Assembly: GCA_036229005.1 (NCBI GenBank)
Contig: JAZAMN010000024.1
Coordinates: 160,001 to 224,000, forward strand
DNA: 64,000 nucleotides
Direction: 5' to 3'
From: Myxococcota bacterium
GTDB taxonomy: Bacteria > Myxococcota_A > UBA796 > CAJQPC01
Part shown: piece after piece, positions 6,527 to 35,317 of the stretch
Numbering within the stretch: the stretch's first letter is position 1
Layout of the letters: each line of letters starts with the position of its first letter
Notes under the pieces: model-generated
Database searches by the model: none
The model's input: the letters and a program-made list of their open reading frames with translations, nothing else
Told to the model about the DNA's origin: nothing
Translations under genes and position numbers: made by a program

Positions 6527-6613
6527 TGTCTGTCGATAAGCCGCCCGCCCGGTCGGCGTCTACAGCAGGGGTGTTATCGGGGACCCTGGCCGCCCCCCGG
6601 CCCTGGAGCACCC

Positions 6614-9692: not shown

Positions 9693-9814
9693 GGGCACTC
9701 CATCTCAGCCTGGGGGTAGGTCCCCAGGGGCTTCCTCGCAGGGTATTCAAAGGGGACGAGGTGTGCAAGGACCCTGCAGACCTTGGGTCGTCGTGGTGCC
9801 AACGGCACACAAGC

Positions 9815-10495: not shown

Positions 10496-10526
10496 GGGGG
10501 ACTCCTGGCGGTTGTCTGCCGGGAGC

Positions 10527-13149: not shown

Positions 13150-13248
13150 CGCAACCTCCAGGTAGAGGGGAGGCTAACACCCTGTGAGCCCGCGCTCTTT
13201 CCGACCAGCGGCGCGACGCTCTATTCTCTGCGGACCCTGGGAGAGACC

Positions 13249-14772: not shown

Positions 14773-14900
14773 ATATTCGCGTATCGGCACGGTCAACGCC
14801 CGAGCGGAGCGAGCGGCTTGAGCGGCAGGGTATGCCGATTAGAGTTCGGCATACCGGCACGGTCAATGCCCGAGCGCAGCGAGTGGCTTGAGCGGCAGGG
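14760..14900. repeat. Two ~70-bp direct repeats, each starting with a hairpin
   Basis: Shared CGGCACGGTCAA.GCCCGAGCG.AGCGAG.GGCTTGAGCGGCAGGG; stems ATACGCGGA/TTCGCGTAT and GTATGCCGA/TCGGCATAC. Confidence 0.85.
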
Positions 14901-14910
14901 GGCTCGCCGG

Positions 14911-15120
14911 GCGCGCAAGTCGTTCTGAACGCAACAGGGCCGCGCGCAAGTGGCTCTGAACGCAACACGCTGCCGCGCAAGCCCCTCTGAACGCAACACA
15001 ACCGGCCTATCCACCCTCGCTGAGAGCGCCTGTTGTTGCGTTGACCCCGACTTGCGCGGCGCCTTGTTGCGTTGACCCCGACTTGAGCGGTGCCTTGTTG
15101 TGCTCACCCCGAGTTGCGCC
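14911..15120. repeat. 31-bp period array: 3 direct copies then 3 inverted copies
   Basis: CGCGCAAG....CTGAACGCAACA units at 14911/14942/14973; inverted TGTTGCGTTGACCCCGACTTG units at 15034/15065/15096. Confidence 0.85.
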
Positions 15121-15128
15121 GGCCGCGG

Positions 15129-16004
15129 CTACCCGGCCACCGCGCAGTAGCTCCCCAGCTCACGAGACCCGAGCCGACGGACCTGCTCGCGGGGAATGCC
15201 CTCATGAATCCAGAGCTCACCGCTGGGATTCGAGGAGGCCTGCACGCAGAGCGTGTCTTCGGTGGTGAGGGCCAGTGCCAGAGGGCTCTCTTGGGTGTCC
15301 GCCCAGAGGGTGAGGGGCAGGCGCTCTCCGGTCAACGTCACCTCGGCCTCAAAGCAGCTGCGCTCCGTGAAGGCCGGCATGTTCGGTCGGCCGTCCGGGG
15401 CCTCTCCGCACTCCCGGGGCTCCACCGCGCGGATGGGCACGCACTCCAACTGGGCGGGGAGCAGGCTGCTGTGGAAGGTGGCCTGGTCGCGCGGCATCAG
15501 CGCTGGGTACAGGCCCAGGAGCTGGGCGGTGCTGGGCTCGAACACCAGCAGCTCGCTCACGATGCAGCGCTGGTAGTCGGTGAAGGTGGCTCGTGTGGGC
15601 CTGGTGGCCTCCATGGTCCGCAGCGTCGCGGCCAGCTCCAGCAGGGGGGCGCCGCGGTGGCTGCGCTGTGCGGCCTGGAGGTAGAGGAAGGGCGCGGCCT
15701 CCGACCCGTCGAGCTCGGCCTCCAGGGCCAGGATCCAGAGCAGACGTCCGTCCCGTGGAGCACTCTCCTTGCGCTCGACCAGGCGGGTCCGGGCGGCCTC
15801 GCGCTCGGAGGGCTCAGCGTCCGAGAGGAGCAGCAGCGCGTCCTCCAGCACCGGAGCGTCCACCCAGGGCCCCGTGCAGTCCGGCGTCGGAGGCAGCTCG
15901 GGAAAGGCGAAGCGCAGGTCGTCGGCGACGCAGCGACCGTCCGGCCAGCGGCGAAGGGCGGGCGCCTCGGGGGCGCCGGTCATCAGGGTCAGGAGCAGGA
16001 GCAT
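15129..16004 (-). CDS. Hypothetical secreted protein
   Basis: Short hydrophobic N-terminus; several Cys; no family recognised. Confidence 0.6.
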   Translation of the reverse strand: MLLLLTLMTGAPEAPALRRWPDGRCVADDLRFAFPELPPTPDCTGPWVDAPVLEDALLLLSDAEPSEREAARTRLVERKESAPRDGRLLWILALEAELDGSEAAPFLYLQAAQRSHRGAPLLELAATLRTMEATRPTRATFTDYQRCIVSELLVFEPSTAQLLGLYPALMPRDQATFHSSLLPAQLECVPIRAVEPRECGEAPDGRPNMPAFTERSCFEAEVTLTGERLPLTLWADTQESPLALALTTEDTLCVQASSNPSGELWIHEGIPREQVRRLGSRELGSYCAVAG

Positions 16005-16037
16005 AGGGGGTTGGTACCCCGCGTGGCCTCCGGGTTC

Positions 16038-16742
16038 CTACGCGATCGGCGAGAAGTTCCCCACCACCGCGCCCGTCTCCGGGTCGGCCCAGATGTGCAG
16101 GCCTTCGTGGGGGCGCTTGCCGGCTCGGATGCGCGCCAGCTCGAAGCGCCAGGCCTCGGCCCAGGCGTCAAAGCGGAGGTTGGCCCAGGCGCACGGGGGC
16201 TCGGTCAGCTTCTCCAGGGGGCCGGTCTGCGCCTCGATGGCGGCGAGCTCGTCGGTGAAGGGGTTCACCGCGATGAGCACCCACAGACGACCGCCGGAGT
16301 GGGGCCAGTACAGGGCGTTCCACTGCGCCAGGATGGCGGGGGTGCCCTCGAGCATCTCCTGCAGCCTGTCCTCGTTGGCGGGCTCAAGCTTTGGGAGTTG
16401 GAGGTCAGTCAAGCGGGGGAGGTGTTGGACCACCTTCTCCGAGACGGACTCCGCGAAGACCTCCTCCACCGTCGCCCAGGGGCCAGTGCAGGCACCCTCG
16501 ACCTGGGGACAGCCCATCAGCGCCTCCAGCTCCTGGCCGCTGATGAACTCCTTGCCGTCGGGCTTGCAGGGGTCCTCTGGGGCCTCGATCTCGGGGTCGT
16601 AGCGGTAGGGCGCGTTGCGCTTCTGCCAGCAGGTCGTGGCGATCCAGGGGACCGGGGGCAAGGTCCGGGTGTCGGGCTCGCCGGAGCTGGGGGCGTCCCG
16701 CTCGTAGGGAGTCGAGAAGAGCTGCCCGATTGCCTTGAACAT
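16038..16742 (-). CDS. Hypothetical protein
   Basis: GGAGG RBS before ATG 16742; codon bias. Confidence 0.65.
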   Translation of the reverse strand: MFKAIGQLFSTPYERDAPSSGEPDTRTLPPVPWIATTCWQKRNAPYRYDPEIEAPEDPCKPDGKEFISGQELEALMGCPQVEGACTGPWATVEEVFAESVSEKVVQHLPRLTDLQLPKLEPANEDRLQEMLEGTPAILAQWNALYWPHSGGRLWVLIAVNPFTDELAAIEAQTGPLEKLTEPPCAWANLRFDAWAEAWRFELARIRAGKRPHEGLHIWADPETGAVVGNFSPIA

Positions 16743-16945
16743 GGGTCCTCCAGGGTCACCCCCTATTCTGGTCCGGTCCGCATGCCGGGGGAAGGGGCGC
16801 TGACTCCCTTGTTGCCCGGAGCATGCTCTGGGACAGGGAGGAAGCGCGGAGGAGCCCCCGGGGTTTTGGGACACACCCCTTGACATCGTGATCGAGCGGG
16901 GTACCGATCCCTGTCCACTTTCTTGTCTCTTGCGAGGTCACTGCG

Positions 16946-18085
16946 ATGCTCTCTCTGCTGCTTGCGCTCTCCGCCCCTGTCCAGGCTCAGGACTGCAACG
17001 TCCGCCAGGCCCAGGCCGACCTCAAGGCCGCGACCCCCACCAGCGTGCCCGCCGCCTACAGCGCGTTGGCCGAGTGCGACGCGGGCGCCGCAAAGAAGGC
17101 CGCGCCCGACGCCCTGGAGAAGGTGCTCGCCGGCAAGGAGGGGAACGCTGTGCTCAAGACGGCCGTGCAGGTGGGCGCGGACGCCGCCGCGCTGGAGTAC
17201 ATCGAGGGCCTGCAGTCCGACGAGCGCTCCAAGGCCGTGGCCTCCCTGGGCACCGCCTGCAATGCCTCCGAGCATGTCGCCGACTTCCTGACCGCCACCG
17301 CCGAGTCCAAGGGCGACGCCTTCTGGACCGAGCGCTGGTACCGCTCCCTGGCCGAGTGTCGGAACCCCGGCGTCCAGGAGCTCCTGCAGTCCGAGATCGA
17401 CAAGCCCGTCTCCGACCAGACCCGCTTCTTTGGTGTGCTGGAGGTCTACTCCCGCAACCTGGGCGCCGACGCGCTGCCCACCCTCAAGCGCCTGCTGGGC
17501 GAGCTCGAGAACGAAGAGGAGCTCACCTACGTCGTCAACGCCTTCGCCGACGCCGCGCAGGTCGGCTCCCTGGAGGGGGTGAACGCCGAGACCTCCGGGA
17601 AGGCGGCCGCGATCATCGTCGAGATGGCCCCTCAGCTCCCCCCCAAGGCGGTCGAGCAGGCCCGCACCACGCTGCTCTCCCTGGGCGCCGAGGCCGAGGC
17701 CAACAAGCTCGCCGGCGTCCGCTACCAGGACCGCATGGTCGATGGTCAGCTTCGCTACGGCGTGGTCGTCGTCGAGACCGCCACCTGCAAGAAGGGCGAC
17801 ACCCAGATCGGCGTGCACATGGGCGTGCTCACCGAGTCCGGCGCCGCCTGGCCCGATCAGGTCGCTGAGTCCGTCGACGCCGCCAGCTACGGCTGGGACT
17901 ATGAGCTCGCGGGCAGCCGCAAGTGCAAGGGCACCAGCGAGAACACCGTGTTCCTGAGCGCCCAGCCCGTCGAGGACGACGCCGCCCTCCAGGCCTTCTG
18001 GGATGAGCAGCGCCAGAAGGTGATCCGCGCCGCCCAGGGACCCGTCACCGAGATCTCGGAAGAGACCGAGCTCAAGCTCCAGTGA
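16946..18085 (+). CDS. Secreted helical-repeat hypothetical protein
   Basis: Signal peptide MLSLLLALSAPVQA; strong codon bias. Confidence 0.8.
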   Translation: MLSLLLALSAPVQAQDCNVRQAQADLKAATPTSVPAAYSALAECDAGAAKKAAPDALEKVLAGKEGNAVLKTAVQVGADAAALEYIEGLQSDERSKAVASLGTACNASEHVADFLTATAESKGDAFWTERWYRSLAECRNPGVQELLQSEIDKPVSDQTRFFGVLEVYSRNLGADALPTLKRLLGELENEEELTYVVNAFADAAQVGSLEGVNAETSGKAAAIIVEMAPQLPPKAVEQARTTLLSLGAEAEANKLAGVRYQDRMVDGQLRYGVVVVETATCKKGDTQIGVHMGVLTESGAAWPDQVAESVDAASYGWDYELAGSRKCKGTSENTVFLSAQPVEDDAALQAFWDEQRQKVIRAAQGPVTEISEETELKLQ

Positions 18086-18621
18086 GTCCTCGCTTTGGGG
18101 CCGATGCCCTGCAGGATGCGCGCGTCCAGGAGCTGCAGCGGTGGGTCCTGGAGTGGGTGGTGGGGCTCAACCTCTGCCCCTTCGCGAAGGCCCCCTTGGA
18201 CAGCGGTCGCGTGGGCTGGGGCATCGAGGAGGGCGACGACTCCGCGGTGATCGACGCCCTGCTGCTGGCCATCGACGAGATCGAGGCCGGCCGCTGCGAC
18301 ACCCTGCTGCTGGCCCTGCCTTGGTTCCTGGACTTCTACGAGCTCATGGACTGCGTGGCCGCCTGCGAGGCGCTGCTGGACCAGGCCGGCCTCTCCGAGC
18401 GCTACCAGCTCGCGCACTTCCACCCGCGCTACATCTTCGAGGACGTCGAGTTCGACGACGCCTCCAACCTGACCAACCGCAGCCCGGTCCCGGCGCTCCA
18501 TCTACTGCGCACGCAGGACGTCGCGTGGGCCGTGGACAAGCACCCGGACATCGCGTCGGTGCCGGAGCGGAACGTGGCCTTGCTGCGGGAGCTCGCCGCC
18601 AAGGGGCAGCTCCCCGGCTGA
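18082..18621 (+). CDS. DUF1415 family protein
   Basis: VVGLNLCPFA, QLAHFHP, TNRSPVP.LHLLR. Confidence 0.88.
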   Translation: MSPRFGADALQDARVQELQRWVLEWVVGLNLCPFAKAPLDSGRVGWGIEEGDDSAVIDALLLAIDEIEAGRCDTLLLALPWFLDFYELMDCVAACEALLDQAGLSERYQLAHFHPRYIFEDVEFDDASNLTNRSPVPALHLLRTQDVAWAVDKHPDIASVPERNVALLRELAAKGQLPG

Positions 18622-18649
18622 GTCTCCGGGCGGATGCTTCGGGTTGGGG

Positions 18650-19387
18650 TCAGCGGCCGCCGGCGGAGTGGATCTCGCAGAGCTCGCCTTCGTCCATCCA
18701 GGCGATGCAGGTGACCGGGCAGGCGTCGATGGCGTCCTGGATCAGGTCCATGGGGCCCTCCTGCTTGAGGACCTCGGCCTTGACCTCTTCGCCTTGCTTG
18801 TCGTCTTCGCCCAGGAAGAACACGTCCTCGGTCTGCTCGACGCAGGTGCCGCAGGAGATGCACTCCTCCTGGTCGATGCTCAGCACCTGGCCGGCGGCCT
18901 TGGCCCGGCTGGACTCGTTGTCGACCGGCCCGACGAACTGCACGCCGTCGTCCGCCGTGTTCAGGCCCACCCCAGCGAGCTCCACGTCGTCTCGGCCGTT
19001 GACCCGCATGCGCTCGGCGTAGGCCTCCAGGTCCGTGCCCGACTGGTCGGCGTGGCGCGCCTCTCCGAGCTGTCCGCTGGCCGCCAGAGCCGCCAGTGCC
19101 GCGAACGAGCTCCCACCCGCGGCAGGCTGCGGCGCGGCGGTCTCCGGGGGAGGAGAGGCTGGGGTCCGCTTTGGGGCTGCTTGGCCCACCGTCTGGACCG
19201 GCTCAGGCAGCGACTCCCTCTGTGCACGCTCTCCCCCCGGCGAGGTGCGACTGGGCGCAGCGGGGCTCGGGGCCTTCGCGGCGGAGGGAGCGGGGCGGGG
19301 GCTGGGCTCAGCGGGGGCGGGCTTGCCGGAGGGCTTGCCGCGTCCCAGGAGCTTCCTGCCGATGCGCTTGAGGCCAGAGCGGATCAT
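18650..19387 (-). CDS. Single-cluster ferredoxin with long Pro/Ala-rich N-terminal extension
   Basis: CISCGTC...AIDACPVTCI. Confidence 0.8.
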   Translation of the reverse strand: MIRSGLKRIGRKLLGRGKPSGKPAPAEPSPRPAPSAAKAPSPAAPSRTSPGGERAQRESLPEPVQTVGQAAPKRTPASPPPETAAPQPAAGGSSFAALAALAASGQLGEARHADQSGTDLEAYAERMRVNGRDDVELAGVGLNTADDGVQFVGPVDNESSRAKAAGQVLSIDQEECISCGTCVEQTEDVFFLGEDDKQGEEVKAEVLKQEGPMDLIQDAIDACPVTCIAWMDEGELCEIHSAGGR

Positions 19388-19455
19388 GGCGGCCAGTGTA
19401 GCCGGGTCGTCCGCGCTTGGCCCGGATAGAGGACGGTGAACCAAAGGAGGACGTC

Positions 19456-20142
19456 ATGGTGGGGTGGGTACTGGTGGTGGGGTTGGGGAGCGCGCAGGCT
19501 GGCGAGGGCGGGCCCATGCTTGGGATCGGGGCCGGGGTCGGCGGCCCTGGCACGGTGCGGATGCTGAACGGCGGCACCACCGTGTCTGCACCGCCGCTTC
19601 CCTACACGTCCCTGCGCTGGTTCATCGGGTCCAGCTTCATCCTGGAGCCCGACCTGACCTGGCTCCGCAGCTCTGGTTGGCTCGACGAAGAGGACCTGGA
19701 CCGCAGCGCGGATGAGCTCGTCTCAAGCTCGCTGTACTCGGAGCACAGCTACTTGAGCGCTGGCCTGACGGCCAAGTGGCTGCTCCCCGTGGGCGACGAG
19801 CTCGCCGTCTACCCCATGCTGGGGGGCGCTTGGGAGCGAGAGCAGCTGTGGGTGTGGAGCGACTCCGAGCTCCGCTCGGAAGCTGTGGTGACCGAGTCCA
19901 AGGTCGCGTCCGGCTGGATCGTGGGTGGGGGACTGGGGACCATGATCTGGCTGCGCTCCCAGCAGCTGAGCCTCTCAGCAGAGCTCTTCCTGGCGCAGTA
20001 CGGCGCCGTTCAGGTCACCCAGGAGCAGTACCTGCTCGACGATGAGACCGGAGACCGCACCCTGGACAACGTCAAGGACTACGACCTTGACGGGCTGCGG
20101 GTCGCGCCGGACGGTCGCCTGGCCGTCCACCTCTACTTCTGA
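19456..20142 (+). CDS. Outer-membrane beta-barrel protein
   Basis: AGGAGG RBS; signal peptide; C-terminal VHLYF. Confidence 0.7.
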   Translation: MVGWVLVVGLGSAQAGEGGPMLGIGAGVGGPGTVRMLNGGTTVSAPPLPYTSLRWFIGSSFILEPDLTWLRSSGWLDEEDLDRSADELVSSSLYSEHSYLSAGLTAKWLLPVGDELAVYPMLGGAWEREQLWVWSDSELRSEAVVTESKVASGWIVGGGLGTMIWLRSQQLSLSAELFLAQYGAVQVTQEQYLLDDETGDRTLDNVKDYDLDGLRVAPDGRLAVHLYF

Positions 20143-20160
20143 GCCGCCGCAGCACGCAGC

Positions 20161-21816
20161 TCAGCGCGGCCACTGCTCCAGAAAGCGCACGATCCGGTCG
20201 CCCAGCGGGTCCAGGCGCTCGAAGAGCTCGTGGTCTTCGACATCGGACTGCAGGCGCAGGAAGAAGGCCTCCTCCAGCACCAGGGTGCGGCCCACCCGCT
20301 GGGCGATGCCCAAGGCCTCCAGCACCTCGGCGAGCTGCTCTCCGGTGGTCCCGCCGCGGGGACGACGGGTCACCAGCCAGCCCTGCATGGAGCAGAACTC
20401 GTCCAGCAGGAAGAGCAGATCTTCGTAGCGACGGCGCTTGATGCGCAGGTCGATGCGGGTGTTCTGGATGGTGAGCTGGACCTCGGCCCCGCTGCGGCGG
20501 TGCACCTGGAGCAGCGACACGATCATGGCCAGGTGGGGCACGTGGGCCAGGGCCCGCTGGCGCAGGGTCACCCGGTCGGGGATGGCGCGGCTGCGGGGCT
20601 CGCCGGGGTGGAAGATGCCGCCGTGCACCAGCTCTCGGCGGTCCACCGCGCTGGGCAGACCACCCTCCTTGGCCCGCCGCTCTTCCAGCAGGCGGTTCAC
20701 GCCGGTCACCCCGCCGACCAGGTCCTGCAGCGTGGGGGGCAGGGCGATGACCAGGTCGGTCTCCTCGGTCAGCTCCAGGAAGGGGCCGGTGAGCTCGCCG
20801 GGCTCGGGGCCGGGGTCGTCGGCCAGGGGGAAGGCGTCGATGGGGCGGCCCAGGAGCACGCGGTCCAGGTCGGCGGCCAGGCGGGCCGGGGTGACCTCGG
20901 CGCCGAACACGCGTCGATCCCAGCTTCCGTAGCGCTGCTGGAGCTTGGCGTATTGCATCGCCGCGCCCGGGTGCCCATCGGCCGCTTCCTTCAAGACCTC
21001 CAGGTAGTTGCGGTACCCAGGGTCGGAGAGGGCCACGCCCGCGACCGTGTCCGCCAGGTCCCGCCGCCAGACCGCGCCCCAGGAGACCACCAATCGGTCG
21101 CCCACGCGCCAGCCGTCTCCGCGACGCACCGCCATCTCGACATAGGAGCCCACCGGACACTCCTCGCCGCCGTGCCAGTCCAGCAGGGCCCGGACGTGCC
21201 ACAGCGAGAGCTCCCCGTGGTCCAACAGGGCGCGCAGGAGCACCCGGTAGGCCTCGGGGCTGTGCTCCGGGTTGCCGTGGATCTCCAGCTTGGGGGGGCG
21301 ACGCCGCGGCCGACCCAGGCCCAGGTCGAAGCTGAGCTGGTGGCCCTGGTTGGGCTTGCGGGCGGCGGGGTAGCGCATCGCGGGCTCCAGGAGGGCGCGC
21401 ACCGAGGTCGCTCGGCGGCGGGCGGTGCTGGGGGCCATGTCCGGCACGGCCTGTTGGATGTACTGGGCGATCACCCCGCTCTGGGGGAGCTCCGTGCGCC
21501 CCTCCATGAGCTGCACCACGAAGGGGTTCTGCCAGACCGCGCGCGCGTAGACCCGGGGGCGGTCGCGACCGGCGTAGGCGTACTCGGTACCCAGGCGCGT
21601 GAGGGTGGGGTGCAGCGTCTTCTCGTCCGTCGAGAGCAGCCGCAGCCAATCACCGGCCTGGGTGTAGTAGTTGACCGTCCGGACCTCGCAGTCCAGCAGC
21701 ATCGCGAGGCTACGGTTGTCCCGTACGCCGCGGGCGACCAGCTCGACCAGGCGGGCCAGCAGGCGCACGTTGTTCGCGTTGGGGATCAGGTTCTGGCGCG
21801 GGACCCGGGAGCTCAT
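20161..21816 (-). CDS. Hypothetical multi-winged-helix protein; N-terminus resembles restriction-associated DUF7226-like domain
   Basis: IPNANN...RTVNYYTQAGDWLRLL...LTRLG...STARRRATSV pattern; no nuclease motif seen. Confidence 0.65.
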   Translation of the reverse strand: MSSRVPRQNLIPNANNVRLLARLVELVARGVRDNRSLAMLLDCEVRTVNYYTQAGDWLRLLSTDEKTLHPTLTRLGTEYAYAGRDRPRVYARAVWQNPFVVQLMEGRTELPQSGVIAQYIQQAVPDMAPSTARRRATSVRALLEPAMRYPAARKPNQGHQLSFDLGLGRPRRRPPKLEIHGNPEHSPEAYRVLLRALLDHGELSLWHVRALLDWHGGEECPVGSYVEMAVRRGDGWRVGDRLVVSWGAVWRRDLADTVAGVALSDPGYRNYLEVLKEAADGHPGAAMQYAKLQQRYGSWDRRVFGAEVTPARLAADLDRVLLGRPIDAFPLADDPGPEPGELTGPFLELTEETDLVIALPPTLQDLVGGVTGVNRLLEERRAKEGGLPSAVDRRELVHGGIFHPGEPRSRAIPDRVTLRQRALAHVPHLAMIVSLLQVHRRSGAEVQLTIQNTRIDLRIKRRRYEDLLFLLDEFCSMQGWLVTRRPRGGTTGEQLAEVLEALGIAQRVGRTLVLEEAFFLRLQSDVEDHELFERLDPLGDRIVRFLEQWPR

Positions 21817-21867
21817 GGCGCGATCCTATCCCCGTTCGAACCTTCATGTTAGGTGGAAACAAATCCC

Positions 21868-21896
21868 TTGACATGACAAGAGCTTCGACCTAGTGT
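21868..21896 (+). promoter_or_regulatory. Sigma-70-type promoter
   Basis: TTGACA-17 bp-TAGTGT; GGAGG RBS and GTG 21941 downstream. Confidence 0.7.
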
Positions 21897-21940
21897 TTCG
21901 CTGCCGTGGGCGTCTGCAGCGTCCGCTGGCGGAGGAAGTT

Positions 21941-22960
21941 GTGAGCCGATTGGCCAGCCGCTTGGCGCGCAGAATGGAGCTCGAGAAGACAGGTGGCCAG
22001 CGCCAGGCCGCCTCCTTCGACCCCGACCAGCACTTCCTGGAGGCCGCTCTGCGTGGCCGGACCGCCCGCAAGGTGCGCGCCCACCTGCGCCGCCTGGAGC
22101 CCGTCGTCCTGATGACACCGCGGTGGTCCAACCCCCAGACTTTCCTGGAGGAGATCGCCCTGGACCTGGCCGTCGGAGAGCCCGCCGTGGGCTGCCGCAC
22201 CGTGTCCTTCCGGCCTCTCAAGGGTCGCCGCCCGCCCGAGGCCTGGAGCTTCATCCTCCAGGTTCTGGGCCAGCTCCGCAACCGCCGAAACGTCTCCCAC
22301 CCCCCCATCGTCGCCGATGGCCGCGGCTTCCGCTCCGTCGCCTTGGAGCTGCTGCTCCGGGCCCAGGACGAGACCGACCACAACCTGGCTCTGCTGGCCC
22401 ACGGCGCCGAGTACCTGCCCATCGACGTGATCGAGGACCTGGGCGAGGTCTGGGCCACCTACGTCCAGAGGATCCCGCGGGACCGCCGGGCCACAATGTT
22501 GCTCGCTGGCAGCGTCAACGCCGAGCTCGACCAGGGCAACCCCGTGACGCTGGCCGATTACGGGGAGGCTGAAGCGGCTGCTGCGATCTTCGGACGGACG
22601 GGGCCCACCGCTCGGGCTCACCTGGAGACCGCCGCCCGCTTCTCGGGCGGCATCCCCGCAGTGGTTGATGCGCTCGGTCGAGGTGCTCGGGAGCAAGGCG
22701 CGATGCCGCGCAGCCGGGCTGGTCTGGTGCGCGCTCTGGGCCCCCTGGGCGAAGAGATGCGCATGGCCGTGGACATCGTGAAGGCCGACACCGAGCTGGC
22801 TGAGCGCCTGCAGGCGCTGCTGCGCGGTGAGCCCCTGGTCGAGGTCCCGCAGGTCGACAAGCCCCTGATGATGGCGGGCTTGCTGCGTCGCGTGCGCTTG
22901 CCTGGCGAGGACCGCGTCATGCTGCGGGCCCCCGCAATCGGCGAGGTCGCTGGGAGCTGA
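21941..22960 (+). CDS. Hypothetical protein, degenerate STAND/AAA-like fold
   Basis: VVLMTPRWSNPQT (eroded Walker A), LALLAHGAEYL (eroded Walker B), SGGIP, LMMAGLLRR. Confidence 0.6.
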   Translation: MSRLASRLARRMELEKTGGQRQAASFDPDQHFLEAALRGRTARKVRAHLRRLEPVVLMTPRWSNPQTFLEEIALDLAVGEPAVGCRTVSFRPLKGRRPPEAWSFILQVLGQLRNRRNVSHPPIVADGRGFRSVALELLLRAQDETDHNLALLAHGAEYLPIDVIEDLGEVWATYVQRIPRDRRATMLLAGSVNAELDQGNPVTLADYGEAEAAAAIFGRTGPTARAHLETAARFSGGIPAVVDALGRGAREQGAMPRSRAGLVRALGPLGEEMRMAVDIVKADTELAERLQALLRGEPLVEVPQVDKPLMMAGLLRRVRLPGEDRVMLRAPAIGEVAGS

Positions 22961-22997
22961 GGGTTCTCCGGGCGAGCCCGGAGCCCCCCGACCGGTC

Positions 22998-23495
22998 TCA
23001 GCCCGAGACCGAGGCGCCGCGCTCACCCTGGACGGTGGCGCTGCCCTTGTTGCCGTCGACGTCGACGACAAAGAGCTCGAAGGTCCACTCGTCCGCCGAG
23101 GTGCAGGGCAGGCTGTAGAGGTTGGCCTGGAAGCTGCCCGTGCAGGTGGCCGCGTCGGGGTCGCAGACCACGATGTCAAAGGCCGTGTCGACGGTCTGGC
23201 CGTCCTGTCCCCAGCTCACGCCGTGCTTGTAGGCCTCGTCCTCCTGGAAGGTGTTCCGGGGGACATCGTTGGGGCCCTGCGGGTCGTCGTAGCTCAGGGA
23301 GAAGCTCCAGAGATCGTAGGGGTTGTCGCCGCCCTCGTCGTGGGTGCGACAGATGGCCTCGAGCTCGCTCAGCTTGGGGCTCACGCCGTCGTCGACGACC
23401 TCCTCTGCGGTGTCGGAGTCGATGGGCTCGTCGTCTCCCTTGCAGGCGGTCAGGAGGACAAGGCCGGTGAAGAGGGCCAGGGGGGTGCTGCGCAT
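22998..23495 (-). CDS. Lipoprotein, hypothetical
   Basis: AAGGAG RBS; lipobox LTAC. Confidence 0.8.
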   Translation of the reverse strand: MRSTPLALFTGLVLLTACKGDDEPIDSDTAEEVVDDGVSPKLSELEAICRTHDEGGDNPYDLWSFSLSYDDPQGPNDVPRNTFQEDEAYKHGVSWGQDGQTVDTAFDIVVCDPDAATCTGSFQANLYSLPCTSADEWTFELFVVDVDGNKGSATVQGERGASVSG

Positions 23496-23577
23496 GCGAA
23501 CTCCTTCAGCTCTCTGAAGGGTACCCCACTGGGGCTCGGCTGGCGAAGGCTCTCTGGGCTGGCCTCCGAGCCCAGTG

Positions 23578-23675
23578 TGTATAGTTGGCGATACATGGTG
23601 AAGGAGTGTGTACAGTGGCGCTGAGAAGCGTGTAATCCTGTAGGTTTGGCGTTCACTGTATTCGGTGATCTACAG
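23578..23675. promoter_or_regulatory. Two palindromic TGTA-N10-TACA sites (putative enhancer-binding-protein UAS)
   Basis: TGTATAGTTGGCGATACA 23578-23595 and CTGTATTCGGTGATCTACAG 23656-23675, in an AT-richer tract upstream of a sigma-54 motif. Confidence 0.6.
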
Positions 23676-23751
23676 GTGTTGATGGTCTTGGTGTAAGCAG
23701 GGGTCGTCAAGCGGTTTGCCGCAAGTGCCTGAAATCACGTTTCCAAAAAGT

Positions 23752-23767
23752 TGGCACAGGTCCTGCA
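23752..23767 (+). promoter_or_regulatory. Sigma-54 (-24/-12) promoter
   Basis: TGGCACAGGTCCTGCA vs consensus TGGCACGNNNNTTGCW; predicts TSS near 23779. Confidence 0.75.
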
Positions 23768-23779
23768 ATCTCTTTCTCC

Positions 23780-25345
23780 GACACCCGGCACAGTCCGGAG
23801 GTCAACCGAGAAAAACGCTCGGCACGTTCTTTGACGTTGACATCGCTGATTGTAGACGGCCGCTGGCCACCTCCTGTCGGAGGGACCTGAACTGGAAACA
23901 GAGCAGGGACAAAGTCAGCGCCTTGGGACAGACTCCTCGGAGTGGAAGACCCAAGGGGCCAACCCCGCAAGGCCAGGGCGACCTGGACGAGCGACGGAAG
24001 GCCGGAATCCAAAGCCTCCCTCGGGAGTGCGGAGGACCCAGCCGGAGCTCTTCGGAGCGAAAGGCGCGCTGCAGTCAGACAAACAAGCCCATGGAAGAAT
24101 CGAGCGGACCTTGGTCGGAAACGGCAAAGGGACGCAACGGACTCTCCCAGCGGAGCAAAGCCTTGGAGCCGCGAGAGCAGACCCCCTCGGGGGAACGCTC
24201 AGGACACAAGCCGGAGACGGCGGGTGTCCAAGTCGCCCAGACAGGACGGGAAACCAGCCTGACACGGCGGCGGGAACGGCAAGAGGGAAGCGCGGGTGCG
24301 GTGACGCATCGGCGGCTGCTGGAGAGGGAAAGTCTTTGAAGGGTCAGCGCTGCGGAAGCGCCAGGGACCGAGGCACCGAAAGGTGGGTCGGCAAGGGAGC
24401 CTCCTTTTGGGGGTGAACGGAACTGGAGCGGGAACGCAGCGAACCTCATGACCGGTAGCAGGATGCAACAAGCCTGCAGACCAGATGCTGATGCCGCCAA
24501 GGAGCTGAGAAAGCTCAAGGCAGCGCGAGCCCGACCTGGCAAGGAAGGGACAAAGCATGGACGAGCGACGCGGAGCCAGCGATGGCGAAGCGGAGCGGCA
24601 GTCGGAGACGGCTGTTGGGGTCGGAATGGCGTCGAGGCCACCCGGCACACACCCAAGACCATGTGGGAGCAGGCATCGCTGGAGAGAAGCCGACTGGAGA
24701 CAGTCTGAGGACAGCCAGCTTGGGTCCAGGAGAGACGGAGTCTGGAGAGCGCGCAGGCAGCGGAGTCGGCAACGACTCAGGCGCAGCGTGAACAAAGGCA
24801 CCGAACAGCCAGGACCGACGGTGACATCGGTGGAGAGGCGGAGAAACCCTCGGAGGAGGAGCAGGCGAGAGCGGACGACAGGACGCACTCACAGGCAAGC
24901 GAAAGAAAGGTCCTCGGACCCGGAGAGCGCCGGCTGCCGGCTCAGGAAACTTGGAAGAGTCTCCAAAGGAGGCGCCCAAGGACAGAAGGACGCAGCATCT
25001 TCGGATGCACAGCGGACTGCGAGAGAGACCTTGAAGGTCCCACCGAATCAACGCGAATCAAACCGCGTCGGTGAAGGCCAGGAAGGGACGCGGGAAAGGC
25101 CAACGACCCGCATCGCAGCCCAGGAAGGACAGCAGCAATGCTGGACGGCGACCTTGAGGTTCAGGCGAACCCCACAGCAGGCGTGACGCGGCGACGCGTT
25201 GAGCGCCAAGGTTCCCGTATCCTCCAAGAGGAACCCTCCCTGGGCTGGGTGTCACCTCTCCTTCAACTGCAAGGAGAGGAAGGCAGCAGACCTTGCTGCC
25301 AACCAAGACCCCGAACCGCTTTGCGCGGTTCGGGGTCTTGTCGTT
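23780..25345 (+). ncRNA. Candidate very large (~1.55 kb) structured non-coding RNA
   Basis: No ORF with host codon bias; purine-rich; more than 15 GNRA/UNCG-type hairpins on + strand; 5'/3' closing helix; flanked by promoter and terminator. Confidence 0.8.
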
Positions 25346-25346
25346 T
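25304..25346 (+). terminator. Strong intrinsic terminator, possibly bidirectional
   Basis: Perfect 16-bp stem CAAGACCCCGAACCGC-TTTGC-GCGGTTCGGGGTCTTG then TCGTTT. Confidence 0.8.
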
Positions 25347-25477
25347 CGGGGCCCACCGCTCCGCCACCGCAGTGCAAACCCACCCCGACCCCCAGAGCAC
25401 AAACGAGGACACCCTCAGGATGTCCTCGCTTGCGGATCGGGTGCACAGGTGTGCGGGGGCCCAGGACCCTGGGCGGT

Positions 25478-27649
<2,172 letters not shown>

Positions 27650-27704
27650 CGAGTCTCCTCGGGAGAGTTTGGGGACCAAGGGGTATCACGCCCGGCGCGG
27701 GGAT

Positions 27705-28937
27705 TCAGATGACCATCGCCTCGGCGCTGCGGAACTCGCGATCGATCTGGAAGACCCCGAGGCTGGCCTGCTCGCCGAGGACGGTGACATGGTCGATTGA
27801 ACGCCCGGCTTCAGCCAGGGCGGTGCAGACCTTGGCGGAGAAGGGGCCGAACATCGCGCCGTGTCCGGAGAAGCCCACCAGCCGGATCAGGTTCCGGGTG
27901 TTGGGGTCGAAGTCCATGAAGGGGTTGTGGTCGGGGGTGGTCCCGTAGAACCCGGCCGTGGTGGCGGAGATCCCCTTGAACTCGCCGACGGGGGGCAGGA
28001 CCTCGGCCAGGGCCATCCAGGTCTCGAAGGGGCGCGCGTCGGCCCCGGAGCGGTGGAAGAACTCGGGCTGCACGGAGTCCTGGTCTTCGTAGGAGAAGTC
28101 GGCGGACTGGTCGGGCGCCGCGTGCTTCCACCCGATCATCAGCGAGCCCGCGTTCTCGGGGCGGCAGTAGGCCCCCGACGGCGAGATCACCAGGGGCATG
28201 GACAGGAGCTGCTCGGCGCTCATGGCCTGGTCGTCGCGCTCCAGGAACCACAGGTAGCGCTTGAGGGCGGCCACGGGCAGCGCCTTGGCCCCCAGGATGT
28301 CACCGAGGCGCCGGCTCCAGGCGTTCGTGCAGTCCACGAACAGGTCGGCCGACAGGGTCTCGCCCTTGGCCGTGGTGACGCTCAGCAGGCGGTCACCTGC
28401 GCGCTCCGCCGAGACCACAGCGCTGTTCATCTTGAGGGTGCCGCCCCGCTGACGGAGCCCCTGGGCGGCCTCGTTGTAGAGCACCTCGGGCCTCAAGAAG
28501 CCATCGCTCGGGCACCAGGTCGCCCCCCCGATGCTCTCCGGGTCCACCCAGGAGAAGCGGCTCTGGACCTGCTCGGGGCTGAGGGCCTCCACCTCCTTCA
28601 ACCCCCAGGCCCTTTGACTCTCCACGCGGATCCGGGCGCCAGCGAGGACATCGGGGGCGTTGGGCAGCAGGAAGAGGTAGCCATTGGACTGGATGGGCCG
28701 GCCCTCGCCGCCGGTGCGCGCCTGCCAGTCGTTGTAGAAGTCCACGGCGTAGCGCATCCCCAGCACCGTCTCGCGCGTGGTGAACTGCTGCCGAAAGCCC
28801 GCCGCGGTGCGCGAGCTGGAGCCGGCGCCCAGGTGCTGGGCCTCGAGCAGGGTGACCGCCCAGCCCTGGTCCTGGAGCTGCAGCGCAGTGAGCGTGCCTG
28901 TGATGCCAGCACCGATGACGATCGCCGAACGAGCCAT
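27705..28937 (-). CDS. FAD-dependent oxidoreductase (DAO / sarcosine oxidase beta-like)
   Basis: IGAGITG, GSSSRTAAG, TPDHNP, GFSGHG. Confidence 0.9.
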   Translation of the reverse strand: MARSAIVIGAGITGTLTALQLQDQGWAVTLLEAQHLGAGSSSRTAAGFRQQFTTRETVLGMRYAVDFYNDWQARTGGEGRPIQSNGYLFLLPNAPDVLAGARIRVESQRAWGLKEVEALSPEQVQSRFSWVDPESIGGATWCPSDGFLRPEVLYNEAAQGLRQRGGTLKMNSAVVSAERAGDRLLSVTTAKGETLSADLFVDCTNAWSRRLGDILGAKALPVAALKRYLWFLERDDQAMSAEQLLSMPLVISPSGAYCRPENAGSLMIGWKHAAPDQSADFSYEDQDSVQPEFFHRSGADARPFETWMALAEVLPPVGEFKGISATTAGFYGTTPDHNPFMDFDPNTRNLIRLVGFSGHGAMFGPFSAKVCTALAEAGRSIDHVTVLGEQASLGVFQIDREFRSAEAMVI

Positions 28938-29040
28938 TGAGGACCTCTGCTTTCGCAGAGCCTATCCAACCGCGCTCGCCGGGAATGTCAGAAGGCCCTG
29001 ACGGGTGGTAGCTTGGTCGGAATCCTGTGGAGGTCCCCCC

Positions 29041-29613
29041 ATGCTTGCCCTGCTTCTCCCCGCGCTCCTGGCTGCTCCCGCTGGCTGGGAGAGCTTCGAC
29101 AGCGGCGGCGGCTGCACCTACTTCAAGAGCCCCAAGCACGCCTCCGGCTACCCCACCCTGCGGGCGGAGTGCACCTGGTCGGACGTGACCCCGGCGCAGC
29201 TCGACGCCCTGCTCTCGGACCTGGAGGGCCACGACGAGATCCACAGCAGCATCGCGGAGGCCAAGGTCGTGGGGACCACCACCAGCGGCACCAAGGTGTA
29301 CCAGCGCCACGTGGCCTCGGGGATCTCCGACCGAGAGGCCAACATGGAGTACACCCGCGCGGTCTCCGGGGACACCATCACCCACGCGTGGTCCATGACC
29401 GCGGACCAGCCCACCCCGGCCGCCGGGAACGAAGCCCCCGCCCACAACTCCGGCAAGTGGGAGCTCAGCCCGGACGGCGCCGGCACCAAGGTGGTCTATG
29501 AGCTGCGCTACGAGCCCGGAGGCAGCGTCCCGGGCTTTGTGGTCCGCGCCTTCCAGACCAGCGGCTTTGTCCTGATTGTCCAGGAGCTCCACAAGGCGGG
29601 CCTGGCAGGCTGA
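29041..29613 (+). CDS. Secreted START/SRPBCC-domain protein
   Basis: GGAGG RBS; signal peptide; ISDRE, GKWEL..GTKVVY..EPGGSVPGFVV. Confidence 0.75.
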   Translation: MLALLLPALLAAPAGWESFDSGGGCTYFKSPKHASGYPTLRAECTWSDVTPAQLDALLSDLEGHDEIHSSIAEAKVVGTTTSGTKVYQRHVASGISDREANMEYTRAVSGDTITHAWSMTADQPTPAAGNEAPAHNSGKWELSPDGAGTKVVYELRYEPGGSVPGFVVRAFQTSGFVLIVQELHKAGLAG

Positions 29614-29680
29614 CACCCACCGGGCCGCGGGACGCTCCGAGGGCCCCCTCCCGGCGACTGGGCCCCTCGGAGCGCAGCCC

Positions 29681-30271
29681 TCAGTAGGCCATCAGCTCGT
29701 CGACGATGTCGTCCGGCCAGGTGCGCTTGCCGTCCAGCCAGGTGGGCTCCTCGCCGTCCAGGTCAAAGAACAAGGGCTCGCTGCCGTCGACGTCGAACCA
29801 GGTGGGCTGCTCCCCGTCGATGTCGAAGAACTCGGGCTCCGTTCCGTCGATGTCGAAGGCCACGATGCTCCCGGCCTTGTCGCCATCGGGGGTGTAGAGC
29901 AGCAGGTCGCCATCCACGGCGGTGCGCCAGATCTCCACGTGCTCCTGGCTGGCGAACACGGCGAAGCCGTCCCCGTCGATGCCGCCCTGCAGGTCACACT
30001 GCCAGTCGGAGGCACCCTTGTTGGAGAGCCAGTGGCTCTGGCTGTCCGAGAGCCAGTGGGTCTGGCTGTTGGACTTGCACACGCCCTTGAGCTTGCCGGT
30101 GTCGGTGTAGAAGCCCAGCACGGCGTCGGTGGCGCTGCCCTCCTTGGCGACGTCCAGCATCACCGTCACGCGCAGGTCCGCGGAGTATTCGGCCGCGGCC
30201 GCCATGGTGGCGGCCATGCTCAGGCCAAAGGAGACGGCGAAGAGGGCCAGGGTGGACTTGGACATGGACAC
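29681..30271 (-). CDS. Secreted protein with short tandem peptide repeats
   Basis: Signal peptide; SQxHWLS x2; FD[IVL]DGxxP x4. Confidence 0.75.
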   Translation of the reverse strand: MSMSKSTLALFAVSFGLSMAATMAAAAEYSADLRVTVMLDVAKEGSATDAVLGFYTDTGKLKGVCKSNSQTHWLSDSQSHWLSNKGASDWQCDLQGGIDGDGFAVFASQEHVEIWRTAVDGDLLLYTPDGDKAGSIVAFDIDGTEPEFFDIDGEQPTWFDVDGSEPLFFDLDGEEPTWLDGKRTWPDDIVDELMAY

Positions 30272-30352
30272 GGAGACCTCCTGTTCTTGGGTCTCCGCAA
30301 AGCTATGGCTGGGCCCCCTGGCGGTCCTGTCCCAGCTTGTCCCAGGCCGCGC

Positions 30353-30967
30353 CTACTCCTGGGGCAGGGCCTCGTCCGCCACCACGTCGATGCCCACGCC
30401 GACCACCTGGGCCAGCTCCTGCGCCTTCTTCTTGAGGTTCAGCTCCTTGCTGTCCTCGTAGACCAGGCGCCGGCCGTCCTTGAGCTCCAGCACGATGGCC
30501 GAGCAGAGCGCGTCCCCCTGGACCCGGCCCTCGTACTGCACCCCCGCGACCTCGCGGAAGCCGATCTCCAGGCGCTCGGGCTCCTCGATGCCCTTGTGGT
30601 GCACGTCGATCTTGATGAGCTCCCGGCCCCCCGCGAGCTGCGTGTAGGCGGTCTGGTCGGGATCGCAGATCTTGAGGACCGCGGGCGGCTCCGGGATGGT
30701 CAGCGCCCCCGGCAGGGTCGCGCTCTGTCCGTCGGGGTTCGCCACGATCACGGTGTGGGCGCCAGCGGCCAGCTCGGGCACGGTGCCCACAAGCTGCACG
30801 GCCCCCTTGAACTCCACGGCCAGATCCTGCCCACCCGCGGTGGCGGTCGCGCCCTGCTGGAAGTCGGCGCCGATCAGCGTCAGGCTGTCGCCGGGCTTGG
30901 CCGTGCCGGGATCCACGGCGCTGAGGGTGGGGGGAGCTGCGGTACAAGCCAGCAACAGAGCGAACAT
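30353..30967 (-). CDS. IPT/TIG-domain lipoprotein
   Basis: MFALLLAC; PTLSAVDP..G..LTLIGADF..VIVANPDG. Confidence 0.75.
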   Translation of the reverse strand: MFALLLACTAAPPTLSAVDPGTAKPGDSLTLIGADFQQGATATAGGQDLAVEFKGAVQLVGTVPELAAGAHTVIVANPDGQSATLPGALTIPEPPAVLKICDPDQTAYTQLAGGRELIKIDVHHKGIEEPERLEIGFREVAGVQYEGRVQGDALCSAIVLELKDGRRLVYEDSKELNLKKKAQELAQVVGVGIDVVADEALPQE

Positions 30968-31006
30968 GAGGCCTCCAAGGCACAAACATAGCGAATAGGG
31001 GATCCC

Positions 31007-32643
<1,637 letters not shown>

Positions 32644-32647
<4 letters not shown>

Positions 32648-33651
32648 AGCCCGTCGACCTGCGCTCGGACACCGTCACCAAGCCCACGCCCCAGATGCTG
32701 GAGGCCATGTTCTCCGCCCAGGTGGGGGACGATGTCCTGGGCGACGACCCCTCGGTCATCGCGCTGGAGCGGGAGGCTGCGCGGCTTGCGGGTATGGAAG
32801 CCGCTCTGTTCACACCGTCCGGGACGATGGCCAATCAGATCGCCATCCGATGCCACACCCAGCCCGGCGACGAGGTCATCATGGAGGAGGGGGCCCACCC
32901 CTACCACTACGAGGCCGGCGCCGCGGCGGTGATCAGCGGGGTGCAGATCCGCCTGGTCAAGGGGCGCGCCGGGGTCCTGGATCCCGACACCCTGTTCGCC
33001 GCGGTGCGCCCGGAGAACGTGCACTTTGCGCCGGCCTCGCTGATCTGCGTGGAGAACACGGCCAACCGCGGGGGCGGCACGGTCTACCCCCAGGGCATCC
33101 TGGACGCCATCGGCCGGGGGGCCCGGGAGCGCGGCCTCAAGGCCCACATGGACGGCGCCCGGGTGTTCAACGCGGTGGTGGCCAGCGGCCAGCCCCTGAG
33201 CCGGGTGCTCCAGGAGTTCGACTCCGTGGCCTTCTGCCTGAGCAAGGGCCTGGGCGCGCCGGTGGGCAGCATCCTGGCGGGCTCCGCGGAGATGATCCAC
33301 ACCGCCCGGAGGGTGCGGAAGCTGCTGGGCGGTGGGATGCGCCAGGCGGGATACCTTGCGGCCGCCGGAAGCTACGCGCTGGAGCATCACGTGCTCCGCC
33401 TGGCCGACGATCACGAGCGCGCGCAGCGCCTGGCGCAGGGGCTCGCGGAGCTGGGCTTTGGGGTGAACGTCCCGGACACCAACATGGTGTACGTCGAGCT
33501 GCCGGACGCTCACGCGGCCCAGGCGCAACTGGAGGCCCTGGGGGTCCACTGCATCGCGATCCGGGACGACGCGATTCGCTTGGTGACGCACCTGGATGTG
33601 GACGATGCGGGGATCAGCCGGGCGCTCGAGGGCTTCGCTGGACTCCGGTGA
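32644..33651 (+). CDS. ltaE: Low-specificity L-threonine aldolase
   Basis: [44 protein letters not shown]. Confidence 0.95.
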
Positions 33652-33775
33652 GCTTGGGGATTCGCTGAGTTGAGGCGAGTGCGGAGTCACCCAGCCGCAC
33701 CTCGCCAGAGCAGAAGAGCCCCACCAGATGGCGGGGCTCCCAGTCACCCCGAGGGGTGAGCTACGCGGTGTCGCG

Positions 33776-35317
33776 TCAGTCGCAGTTGGCCTTCCCTGCG
33801 TAGGAGACCTTGACCACGTCGCCACCCTCGGGGATGTCCGAGGTGAACACCACGGTGTTGCTGGGCTCGTCGTAGTACCAGCCGCCGGTGCGCTCGACGT
33901 CGTTGACCAGGACCACGATGGTGGCCTCGACGGGGGTCGCCTGCAGCTCGTAGGTGTCCACGGAGACCGAGGCCTTGGCCAGGCTGCTCATGTAGGAGGA
34001 CCAGGAGCTCGCGCAGATGCTCAGGAACTCACCGCCGGTGGCGTTGACGGCGTCGTAGTAGCCGGTGCCAGGGTCGGCGGAGCCACAGCCGCTGGGGTAG
34101 TCACCCACGATGGCGGAGAGCTTGACGAGGCTGCTGCTGCCCTTGGCGGCCTGGATGCGGGAGACGTAGTTGCTCCAGCTCCCGCTGCTCTGCTCGGGCT
34201 CGTCGCTGACCATGATGACGTGCAGCAGGGCGCCGTCGCGCATGAAGCCGGCGTTGCAGCCCGTGACGGACTTCTCGGTGCCCAGGGCTGCCAGGGTCAG
34301 CAGGGACTCGGTGTAGGAGCTGCCGCTACCGGCCTTGGCCGCGGTGGCGAACTTGCTCTCGTAGCCCGAGGTGGTGGGCTTGAGGATGCCGGCGGTGTTG
34401 TTCTTGCAGCCGTCGTCCCCACCGATGACCATGACGTGCCAGTCGTTGGTGTAGGTGTCCAGGTTCTGGATGAAGTAGGAGAAGTTGTTGGCCAGGCGGG
34501 CCTGGTCGTCGTCCATCGAGCAGGAGTTGTCCACCAGGAACATGATGTCGGTGGGCGGATCGAAGGGGACGGTCCACTTCTCCTTGTACTCGGCGGTGTA
34601 GCGGCCCTCGCCCTCGGCGATGCCGGTGTGCACGCCCGCGGGGTCGTCGGCCTCGACCGTGAACTCGCCGGTGTAGGCGACCTCCTCCAGCGGGTCGAAC
34701 CAGATGCTGACCTCGGCGGACTCACCGGGGGCCAGGGTGAGGGGGAGGCTCAGGCCGTGATCCAGGCCGAAGTCGGAGGTGCCGAAGTCGTTGATCGCGG
34801 TGACCTGGAGGCTGTCGGTGCCGACGTTCTCAAGGGTGATGGGCACCTCTTGGTCGCAGCCGACGTAGGTCTTGCCGAAGTCGTAGGGGTTGGGGGAGAT
34901 CTGCAGCTCGGGGACAAGGCCGCCGCCCAGCAGATCGACGGTGGCCTTGGGCACCTGCGCGTCGTTGCTGGAGATGATGGCCAGGGTCTCCTGAGCGACC
35001 CCGTGGGGGGTGAAGTCGACCTCGATGGTCTCGGCGGCTCCCGCGGGCAGCACGAACTCGAGGCTCTCGTTCAGGATGGTGAAGCCGCCGGAGCCGGCGC
35101 CGAGGGTGATCCCGGAGACCTCCAGCTCACCGCCGCAGTCGTTGATCACATCGAAGCTCTTGGTGACGTGCTCGTCGCGGGCGAGCTCGCCGAAGTTCAG
35201 GACCTCGGGGGTCACCACGATGCAGGGATCGTTGGCTCCGTACCCGTCGTTGTCGGGGGTGAGCTCGTAGTCCTGGGCACAACCCAGGAGGCCCGCGAAG
35301 AGGGCGGCGGTAAACAT
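33776..35317 (-). CDS. Lipoprotein with tandem Ig-like (ASH/choice-of-anchor D-like) domains and vWA domain
   Basis: Lipobox LLGC; two Ig-like repeats; MIDAS-like DNSCSM and VSDEPEQS. Confidence 0.8.
   Translation of the reverse strand: MFTAALFAGLLGCAQDYELTPDNDGYGANDPCIVVTPEVLNFGELARDEHVTKSFDVINDCGGELEVSGITLGAGSGGFTILNESLEFVLPAGAAETIEVDFTPHGVAQETLAIISSNDAQVPKATVDLLGGGLVPELQISPNPYDFGKTYVGCDQEVPITLENVGTDSLQVTAINDFGTSDFGLDHGLSLPLTLAPGESAEVSIWFDPLEEVAYTGEFTVEADDPAGVHTGIAEGEGRYTAEYKEKWTVPFDPPTDIMFLVDNSCSMDDDQARLANNFSYFIQNLDTYTNDWHVMVIGGDDGCKNNTAGILKPTTSGYESKFATAAKAGSGSSYTESLLTLAALGTEKSVTGCNAGFMRDGALLHVIMVSDEPEQSSGSWSNYVSRIQAAKGSSSLVKLSAIVGDYPSGCGSADPGTGYYDAVNATGGEFLSICASSWSSYMSSLAKASVSVDTYELQATPVEATIVVLVNDVERTGGWYYDEPSNTVVFTSDIPEGGDVVKVSYAGKANCD

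Follow-up and report, generated by a model that had tools for sequence, protein, structure and literature searches.

The window, the whole stretch of 64,000 nucleotides of a Myxococcota genome that was analysed here, has a single gap of more than 1 kb between codon-biased ORFs (23670-25480); the runner-up measures 605 nt. A sequence-only reading had singled out this gap as the site of a giant structured RNA. We are highly confident that 23778..25345 on the + strand is a stand-alone chromosomal gene for a structured non-coding RNA, whose family is widespread in the order, with members 1.2-3.3 kb long, is patchy in the phylum and often occurs in 2-6 copies. The RNA in the window is ~1.5 kb long and consists of a structured body (23780-25253), a short trailer and a terminator. 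The strand of the transcript is inferred from the orientation of the promoter, the asymmetry of the tetraloops and the terminator. To the earlier proposal our analysis adds the promoter class, a boxA, a second copy, the range and size span of the family, its modular domains and a kissing loop.

Both flanking genes are on the minus strand and outside the RNA. The divergent neighbour (22998..23495) encodes a 165-aa protein without a Pfam match and adjoins the RNA only within the genus. The convergent neighbour (25478..27679) encodes a fused 2-oxoacid dehydrogenase E1 alpha/beta protein (Pfam E1_dh and Transketolase). An E1 dehydrogenase gene lies downstream of the RNA in 9/37 loci, which suggests vertical descent. 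Neighbours otherwise vary, and no dedicated neighbour or partner gene was found among the loci compared. A 355-aa protein (21893-22960, +) was rejected as a partner because its gene is a core gene, present in 65/71 genomes of the order including those of RNA-negative genera; it has no Pfam match, is unannotated and nearly always has one match per genome. A 551-aa protein (20161-21816, minus strand) has only a sub-cut-off match to DUF7226 at its N-terminus (E 1.3e-5). In four of the 37 loci (L039, L040, L052 and L090), a gene that appears rho-like by eye is divergent from the RNA promoter. ARAGORN detected no tRNA or tmRNA in the window; the genome's single match to RNase P RNA (RF00010) is on contig C31 and its tmRNA (RF00023) is on contig C4.

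The + strand is A/G-rich as described earlier (AT skew +0.3 to +0.56 across 23800-25300), and its extreme density of tetraloop hairpins was confirmed. Counting stems of at least 4 bp closed by GNRA, UUCG or CUCG-type loops, we found 18 hairpins on the + strand versus one on the minus strand. Dinucleotide shuffles (n=500) gave 1.6 ± 1.3 with a maximum of 6, and the best strand of 81 other windows had no more than 6. All 13 stem-loop and helix strings quoted in the sequence-only reading are present where it placed them, and its six UUCG/CUCG loops were located within ~5 nt of the positions it gave. The positions in its list of GNRA hairpins are correct, but the hairpin at 23892 has a stem of 3 bp only. 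In 200-nt windows, the z-scores of the folding energy are modest (+0.3 to -2.5, with -6.2 only in the last one, which contains the terminator) and do not distinguish the strands. Energy alone would therefore have missed the RNA.

The host GC3 pattern is missing from the open frames in the element; the 18 open frames inside the gap have GC3 values of 0.48-0.72 versus a host median of 0.94, in agreement with the claim that they lack the host codon bias. Between the two copies in this genome, 11 of the 71 indels are multiples of three, which argues against coding. Homologues could have revealed protein-coding conservation rather than covariation; in this check 18 column pairs covary and no coding signal was seen.

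The RNA also lies outside the named families, as had been proposed. Rfam gave no match at gathering thresholds in the window or in 20 distant loci, and none at E<=0.1 in 16 transcript-like contigs; the element itself has only weak chance matches (best E 0.29). No description of such an RNA was found in the literature, most subscription papers and preprint supplements lying outside coverage. The main texts of two 2026 studies on non-coding mining (10.64898/2026.10.21.760802; 10.64898/2026.09.22.753630) mention no Myxococc- or giant RNAs. In the available text of a TRIC-seq preprint (10.1101/2025.09.11.675593), the Myxococcus xanthus ncRNAs named are Pxr and MXnc1, and a review, as far as its text is available, cites an M. 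xanthus ncRNA survey (PMC8538405). It is likely that the family has been undescribed so far.

Transcription signals and expression

The element TGGCAC-N6-TGC at 23752..23766 (+) fits the consensus of a sigma-54-type -24/-12 promoter, with a predicted start near 23778. About 60 nt downstream of this promoter is a motif (23826..23837, +) that we take to be boxA-like, an rRNA-type antitermination signal; it is the best-conserved 5' block. A clear promoter match followed by boxA was found in 38 of 47 distinct loci, with one doubtful and eight without, six of these eight having less than 900 nt of upstream DNA. A promoter scan found no sigma-70-type promoter at the locus. In distant members the strict sigma-54 box is often missing and several have a sigma-70-like promoter, while boxA is often kept. 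Near-identical boxA-containing sequences are also present at the ends of contigs C8, C24 and C26 of the same genome; these are probably leaders of unassembled rRNA operons.

The upstream regions share further motifs. One that presumably resembles an IHF site (23722..23735, +, upstream of the promoter) occurs in 11/36 upstream regions and in none of the shuffles. Within 150 nt, a GGGAA...TTCCC palindrome is present in 15/36 (for example L040, L052, L076 and L083; shuffle maximum 6), and a motif that we would call DnaA-box-like in 14/36 (shuffle maximum 4). The palindrome and the DnaA-box-like motifs are candidate activator sites and might tie the RNA to the control of replication or growth.

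At the 3' end, an intrinsic-terminator-like hairpin with a T-rich tail (25304..25347, +) contains a 16-bp perfect inverted repeat. It is missing from the list of a simple terminator scan; most homologues have a comparable hairpin after the 3' end. The promoter and terminator postulated for the RNA are thus both present.

Sequencing data are consistent with independent transcription. All or part of the element was found in 20 of the 23 runs listed, with 14 recorded as RNA and 10 studies represented. Contigs of four runs (X1, X3, X8 and X12, with X8 taken as RNA by guess) were compared with positions 16000-34000 in 30 bins; runs X14-X19, with a low share, and X21-X23, with next to no words, were excluded. 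The X1 contigs span 23815-25228 at depths of 1,200-16,000 per bin or piece. Three bins have depths of 7,970, 15,885 and 2,024 versus 0-0.9 in the other 27 of 30, although depth in contigs reflects expression poorly and contigs carry no information on strand, ends or true level. In X3, X12 and X8 the element is covered at low depth, with scattered small matches elsewhere. Almost none of the 16 kb flank is covered in the four RNA-type runs; uncovered bins are no proof that the flanking genes are silent. Letters specific to the second copy are present in the contigs of X1 and X3.

A pattern scan of a metagenome collection retrieved at least 120 stretches, of which 80 were complete contigs 1.0-2.7 kb long. 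Among the matches listed, 60 of the 80 contigs begin within 150 nt of boxA (mostly ~40 nt), 57 stop within 90 nt of the last module, 44 show both ends and one includes the promoter. In many samples, contigs have their ends where those of the RNA are predicted, and assembled transcripts are the most plausible interpretation. The RNA appears to be so plentiful in environmental RNA that its full length assembles as a separate contig. The claim of an independently transcribed RNA is therefore upheld by the conserved promoter, boxA and terminator, by RNA-library coverage confined to the element and by the transcript-shaped contigs.

Covarying structure and domain organisation

That the RNA is very large and structured is borne out by homologues with covarying helices. 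A core alignment was built from 39 of the 47 sequences found, leaving out three partial ones and five with insertions or divergence. Its three core helices are 91-100% paired, with a covariation score of 0.341 versus 0.166 ± 0.011 after shuffling (0/500 as high) and 0.04-0.10 when slid. To cover the RNA from end to end, nine conserved segments were excised from each of 129 elements (127 after de-duplication), and a separate full-element alignment contained the 31 of 37 elements that are under 1,900 nt. With a home-made tree simulation of 12 replicates as the null, 18 column pairs among the 127 homologues exceed the maximum of all 12. Fourteen of them are Watson-Crick (>=80% paired), one is a T-loop-type closing pair and three are purine-purine. 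The top pairs outline nested long-range helices of domains I and II.

The body of the RNA, all on the + strand, is closed by helix P1, in which the first ten bases (23780..23789) form 10/10 pairs with 25244..25253. In homologues, the P1 pairing is kept while the sequence changes. The duplex energy is -20.0 kcal/mol with the RNA's own partner versus -15.2 kcal/mol with other partners, and the own partner beats the mean of the others in 23/29 cases, several 3' windows being mis-anchored. Next to the 5' end is a variable region with lineage-specific hairpins (23840..24080), which is poorly conserved in the alignment and grows to ~2 kb in some homologues.

Domain I (24087..24344) contains nine of the 18 top covarying pairs, in segments S2/S3. 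In the constrained fold, its outer helix with a 3x3 purine loop is formed by 24087-98 and 24333-44, and a second 3x3 module by 24161-71 and 24277-87; GNRA hairpins are located at 24118 and 24301. The helix 24142-46/24322-26 is backed by covariation, in support of the long-range helix 24142/24318 proposed earlier. The other long-range helix proposed (24576/24674) fared differently: its strings are in place, but it lies within a lineage-specific insertion and is absent from the constrained fold.

Domain II (24444..24838) is the conserved core and has a ~280-nt insertion in this copy. Inside its outer 3x3 module (24444-54/24828-38) are hairpin H1 (24458-77) with a T-loop-like UGCAA, hairpin H3 (24502-16) with a T-loop UGAGA, whose closing pair covaries as UA/GG/CA/AA, and hairpin H4 with the loop UGGC (24537-40). 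Domain III (24845..25235, limits approximate) has further 3x3 modules, for example 25029-39/25076-86. One pair in its segment S7 exceeds the null maximum; its S5-S9 and S6-S8 pairs are 87-100% Watson-Crick, yet below that maximum. The covariation-constrained fold of the window copy is 10 kcal/mol above the free minimum and has 35 hairpin loops.

The domains appear to be built from common parts. A module of helix, 3x3 purine loop and helix is repeated ~7 times per RNA. In the loop, GRR faces RNG; one G-G is almost invariant and an A-A/G-G covaries. The tallies for three of the seven (M3-M5) are off register and were left out of the counts. A covariance model of domain II also scores on the same strand where domains I and III lie, with best E-values of 1e-5 and 5e-3, which suggests internal duplication; the cross-matches are moderate and are clear in only some of 25 RNAs.

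A kissing loop joins domains II and III. The H4 loop is UGGN in 99/123 members and its partner is the NCCA loop in domain III, which in the window copy is GCCA (25099-25102) in the hairpin 25090-25111. In a separate test, which supports this contact, the variable position is strictly Watson-Crick in 72/89 (shuffle mean 43, maximum 58). In the full-matrix test it is the top partner for its column, with a score of 79, below the null maximum of 103. This contact may form only within one molecule. No loop was recognised as a conserved self-kissing palindrome, and the tetramer of domain II that resembles a palindrome has its partner in cis. Conserved GNRA hairpins are present, and from them A-minor docking is expected.

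Three candidate interactions were discarded. An extended H1 helix between alignment columns 26-30 and 55-59 is only 53% paired. A GACC-type tetramer was wrongly paired with domain III; its partner is segment S5. The idea that the UGGN loop binds the NCCA ends of tRNA was dropped once the internal partner covaried.

A patchy, multi-copy family

The genome itself carries a second copy on contig C8 (97256-98929), 73% identical and with the same promoter and boxA. A DNA search gave matches in 19/61 genomes, this one included, and an exact core pattern retrieved 41 loci among 185,579 species genomes. By their titles, 39 of these loci belong to Myxococcota (18), Pseudomonadota (17) and Bdellovibrionota (1), with three unplaced; the tree of the 39 core sequences is poorly resolved and bears no claim. 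Many records titled Enterobacterales or other Proteobacteria (L050-L090) carry the RNA. Several of the Pseudomonadota-titled loci are identical to loci of genomes listed in the same family or order, some of them close kin of the genome analysed here, so we regard those titles as unreliable, probably mis-assigned, and take the family to be myxococcotal. Phage and plasmid collections contain no match to the RNA. The viral collection holds one (L091), in which positions 1-~1550 are the RNA from its predicted 5' end fused to an RNA-virus-like replicase; this is probably an assembly chimera, and such records may mislead on host range.

Covariance models extended the range. They match in 37/71 genomes of the order, in 28/151 genomes drawn from the phylum and in 24/80 hand-picked larger ones, with up to six matches per genome, and homologues also occur in other classes of the phylum. 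No covariance-model match was found in six single-contig genomes among the 80, or in 34/71 genomes of the order, including 7/7 of one family. Given these 34, the RNA may be dispensable or may have been missed in drafts.

The 37 full-length genomic elements are 1.18-3.35 kb long (median 1.58 kb), some ends being estimated. Distant members keep the order of segments and are shorter, ~0.6-1.3 kb by eye. A closed single-contig genome (G194) has three copies. One of its loci (L267, contig C1, ~7348500-7349000) is ~380 nt longer than its sister copy owing to an extra stretch in a variable arm, with repeats that by eye resemble insertion-sequence ends. A subfamily in the same class (L253-L257, L231, L239, L242 and L243) reaches six matches per genome. 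In eight of 41 distant members, all in that subfamily, the T-loop of H1 is swapped for a GNRA tetraloop.

Possible functions and comparison with known large RNAs

Combining the signals and the structure, we propose the following course. The sigma-54 polymerase and an upstream activator would start transcription, and NusB/NusE would load on boxA as on rRNA leaders. Abstracts on boxA and NusB describe such a role in rRNA antitermination. The long untranslated RNA could thereby escape Rho and fold co-transcriptionally. The intrinsic terminator would fix its 3' end and P1 would close the molecule. The folded core, which probably arose by duplication of one ~200-nt domain, would be docked together by A-minor contacts of GNRA loops and T-loops and by the kissing loop, and its variable arms would face outward. 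An oligomer or cage could then store or hold cargo under sigma-54-controlled conditions, by analogy with the GOLLD/ROOL architecture.

By this analogy, an architectural RNA, stable, very abundant and Nus-assisted, whose copies assemble by themselves into an oligomer or cage that holds cargo, is our leading reading, at somewhat below even chances. We rank it first because the same signatures are the cage bridges in GOLLD and ROOL and because no partner gene was found. According to the available text of PMC12286853, the kissing loops and A-minor contacts of ROOL and GOLLD, which covariation had revealed first, turned out to bridge separate chains. Against such a scaffold, the kissing loop may be intramolecular, no conserved self-kissing palindrome was identified, a closed cage may have little room for the very large variable insertions, and the phage and tRNA links of GOLLD/ROOL are missing. 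A broader idea, which we hold more tentatively still, is a class of giant stable RNAs with ribosomal antitermination, at least 16S length (up to ~3.3 kb) and duplicated domains, forming an RNA machine or compartment with a catalytic or storage role phylum-wide.

The ~7 recurrences of the same 3x3 loop could instead indicate a multivalent ribonucleoprotein, in which the purine loops bind many copies of one protein and sequester or organise it, with the logic of CsrB and the form of OLE. Repeated motifs are a hallmark of protein sponges, and a sigma-54 promoter would suit a regulated one. A CsrA sponge of the CsrB/RsmZ type was rejected, since PF02599 has no match in the 94% complete genome and the hairpin loops are of GNRA/UUCG type. 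The lack of CsrA also weakens the wider protein-binding reading, as does the fact that the only neighbour recurring across several lineages is the core gene found in 65/71 genomes. The 3x3 loops could equally be tertiary docking sites and no partner protein was identified, so we rate this reading as rather unlikely. [quoted passage not shown] The H1 loop closely resembles a stretch of the genome's own RNase P RNA, presumably J11/12. All three known interdigitated T-loop pairs (RNase P, T-box and L1 stalk) bind the tRNA elbow, as the available text of PMC4810234 states. However, the change of the H1 T-loop to GNRA in distant members fits a docking loop better, the covarying partner of the UGGN loop lies inside the RNA, the two T-loops do not covary among the top pairs, and neither covariance model matches the genome's RNase P. 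We consider tRNA binding unlikely, more so than a protein-binding role.

Several copies per genome, changing neighbours and paired ends would also be expected of a ribozyme or of what is left of a mobile RNA, such as a group I/II intron, a HEARO-like element or a MITE, and the many near-invariant unpaired bases recall a catalytic core. Such an origin is improbable: Rfam has no intron or ribozyme match, there is no ORF and no interrupted gene, the paired ends are flanked by a conserved promoter and terminator, nine of the 37 loci have the E1 neighbour in common, and copies in the same genome are only 73% identical. A catalytic activity of some unfamiliar kind keeps a small probability. That the stretch encodes no functional RNA, and is decayed coding DNA, a long leader or a spacer that is purine-rich by chance, could draw on the mild folding-energy z-scores and on several open frames of more than 200 codons. 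It is largely refuted by covariation, frame-breaking indels, the conserved promoter and terminator, the convergent or divergent orientation of the neighbours and RNA-library coverage that stays within the element, and we give it hardly any weight.

The architectural reading places the RNA beside GOLLD and ROOL, whose examples measure 833 nt and 550-598 nt, respectively, in the available texts (PMC12286853; PMC12990946). As far as those texts go, both are, like the new RNA, large and ornate, have no known function, contain kissing loops and A-minor/GNRA contacts, and combine a conserved core with a variable region. Of the traits compared, a kissing loop and GNRA loops conserved by covariation were found, whereas a match to the family models and a phage or tRNA location were not. 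The new RNA differs in having no Rfam match, a length of 1.2-3.3 kb, a chromosomal location with no tRNA or phage context found, a sigma-54 promoter, boxA and repeated 3x3-loop modules. OLE and raiA are likewise described, in the texts available, as chromosomal, abundant and highly structured RNAs; the new RNA matches no family model, is several times longer, belongs to another phylum and has no dedicated partner gene beside it.

Among the universal RNAs, type A RNase P RNA (RF00010) has a similar T-loop-like stretch and many GNRA loops; RF00010 has no match at the locus, and in the new RNA the similar stretch sits in a hairpin. For tmRNA, neither an RF00023 match over the cut-off nor an ARAGORN call was obtained at the locus. 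rRNA operons also have boxA near the 5' end and a leader-trailer helix, and 16S rRNA is of similar length. The new RNA differs from them in that it has no rRNA homology, has a sigma-54-type promoter in the order, is patchy and tolerates kilobase insertions. The main text of the TRIC-seq preprint, as far as available, gives Ssr42 (1233 nt, Staphylococcus aureus) as another long bacterial ncRNA and Pxr/MXnc1 as myxobacterial ones (10.1101/2025.09.11.675593). It describes these as regulators that pair with other RNAs, whereas the new family is conserved by intramolecular covariation throughout.

Its likeness to the large ornate RNAs, together with failed membership in every named family tested, led us to file the RNA as a new class. 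Bacteria are known to have few classes of large ornate RNA, and what these do is an old question. This family is chromosomal and brings rRNA-like transcription signals to a non-ribosomal RNA, which may be a new kind of bacterial scaffold or machine. More than 120 aligned homologues, compact members of ~0.6-1.2 kb and a covariation-based structure provide a ready base for structural and probing work. In the sources available, the largest RNA described as ornate is GOLLD, at ~830 nt; the new family is two to four times longer.
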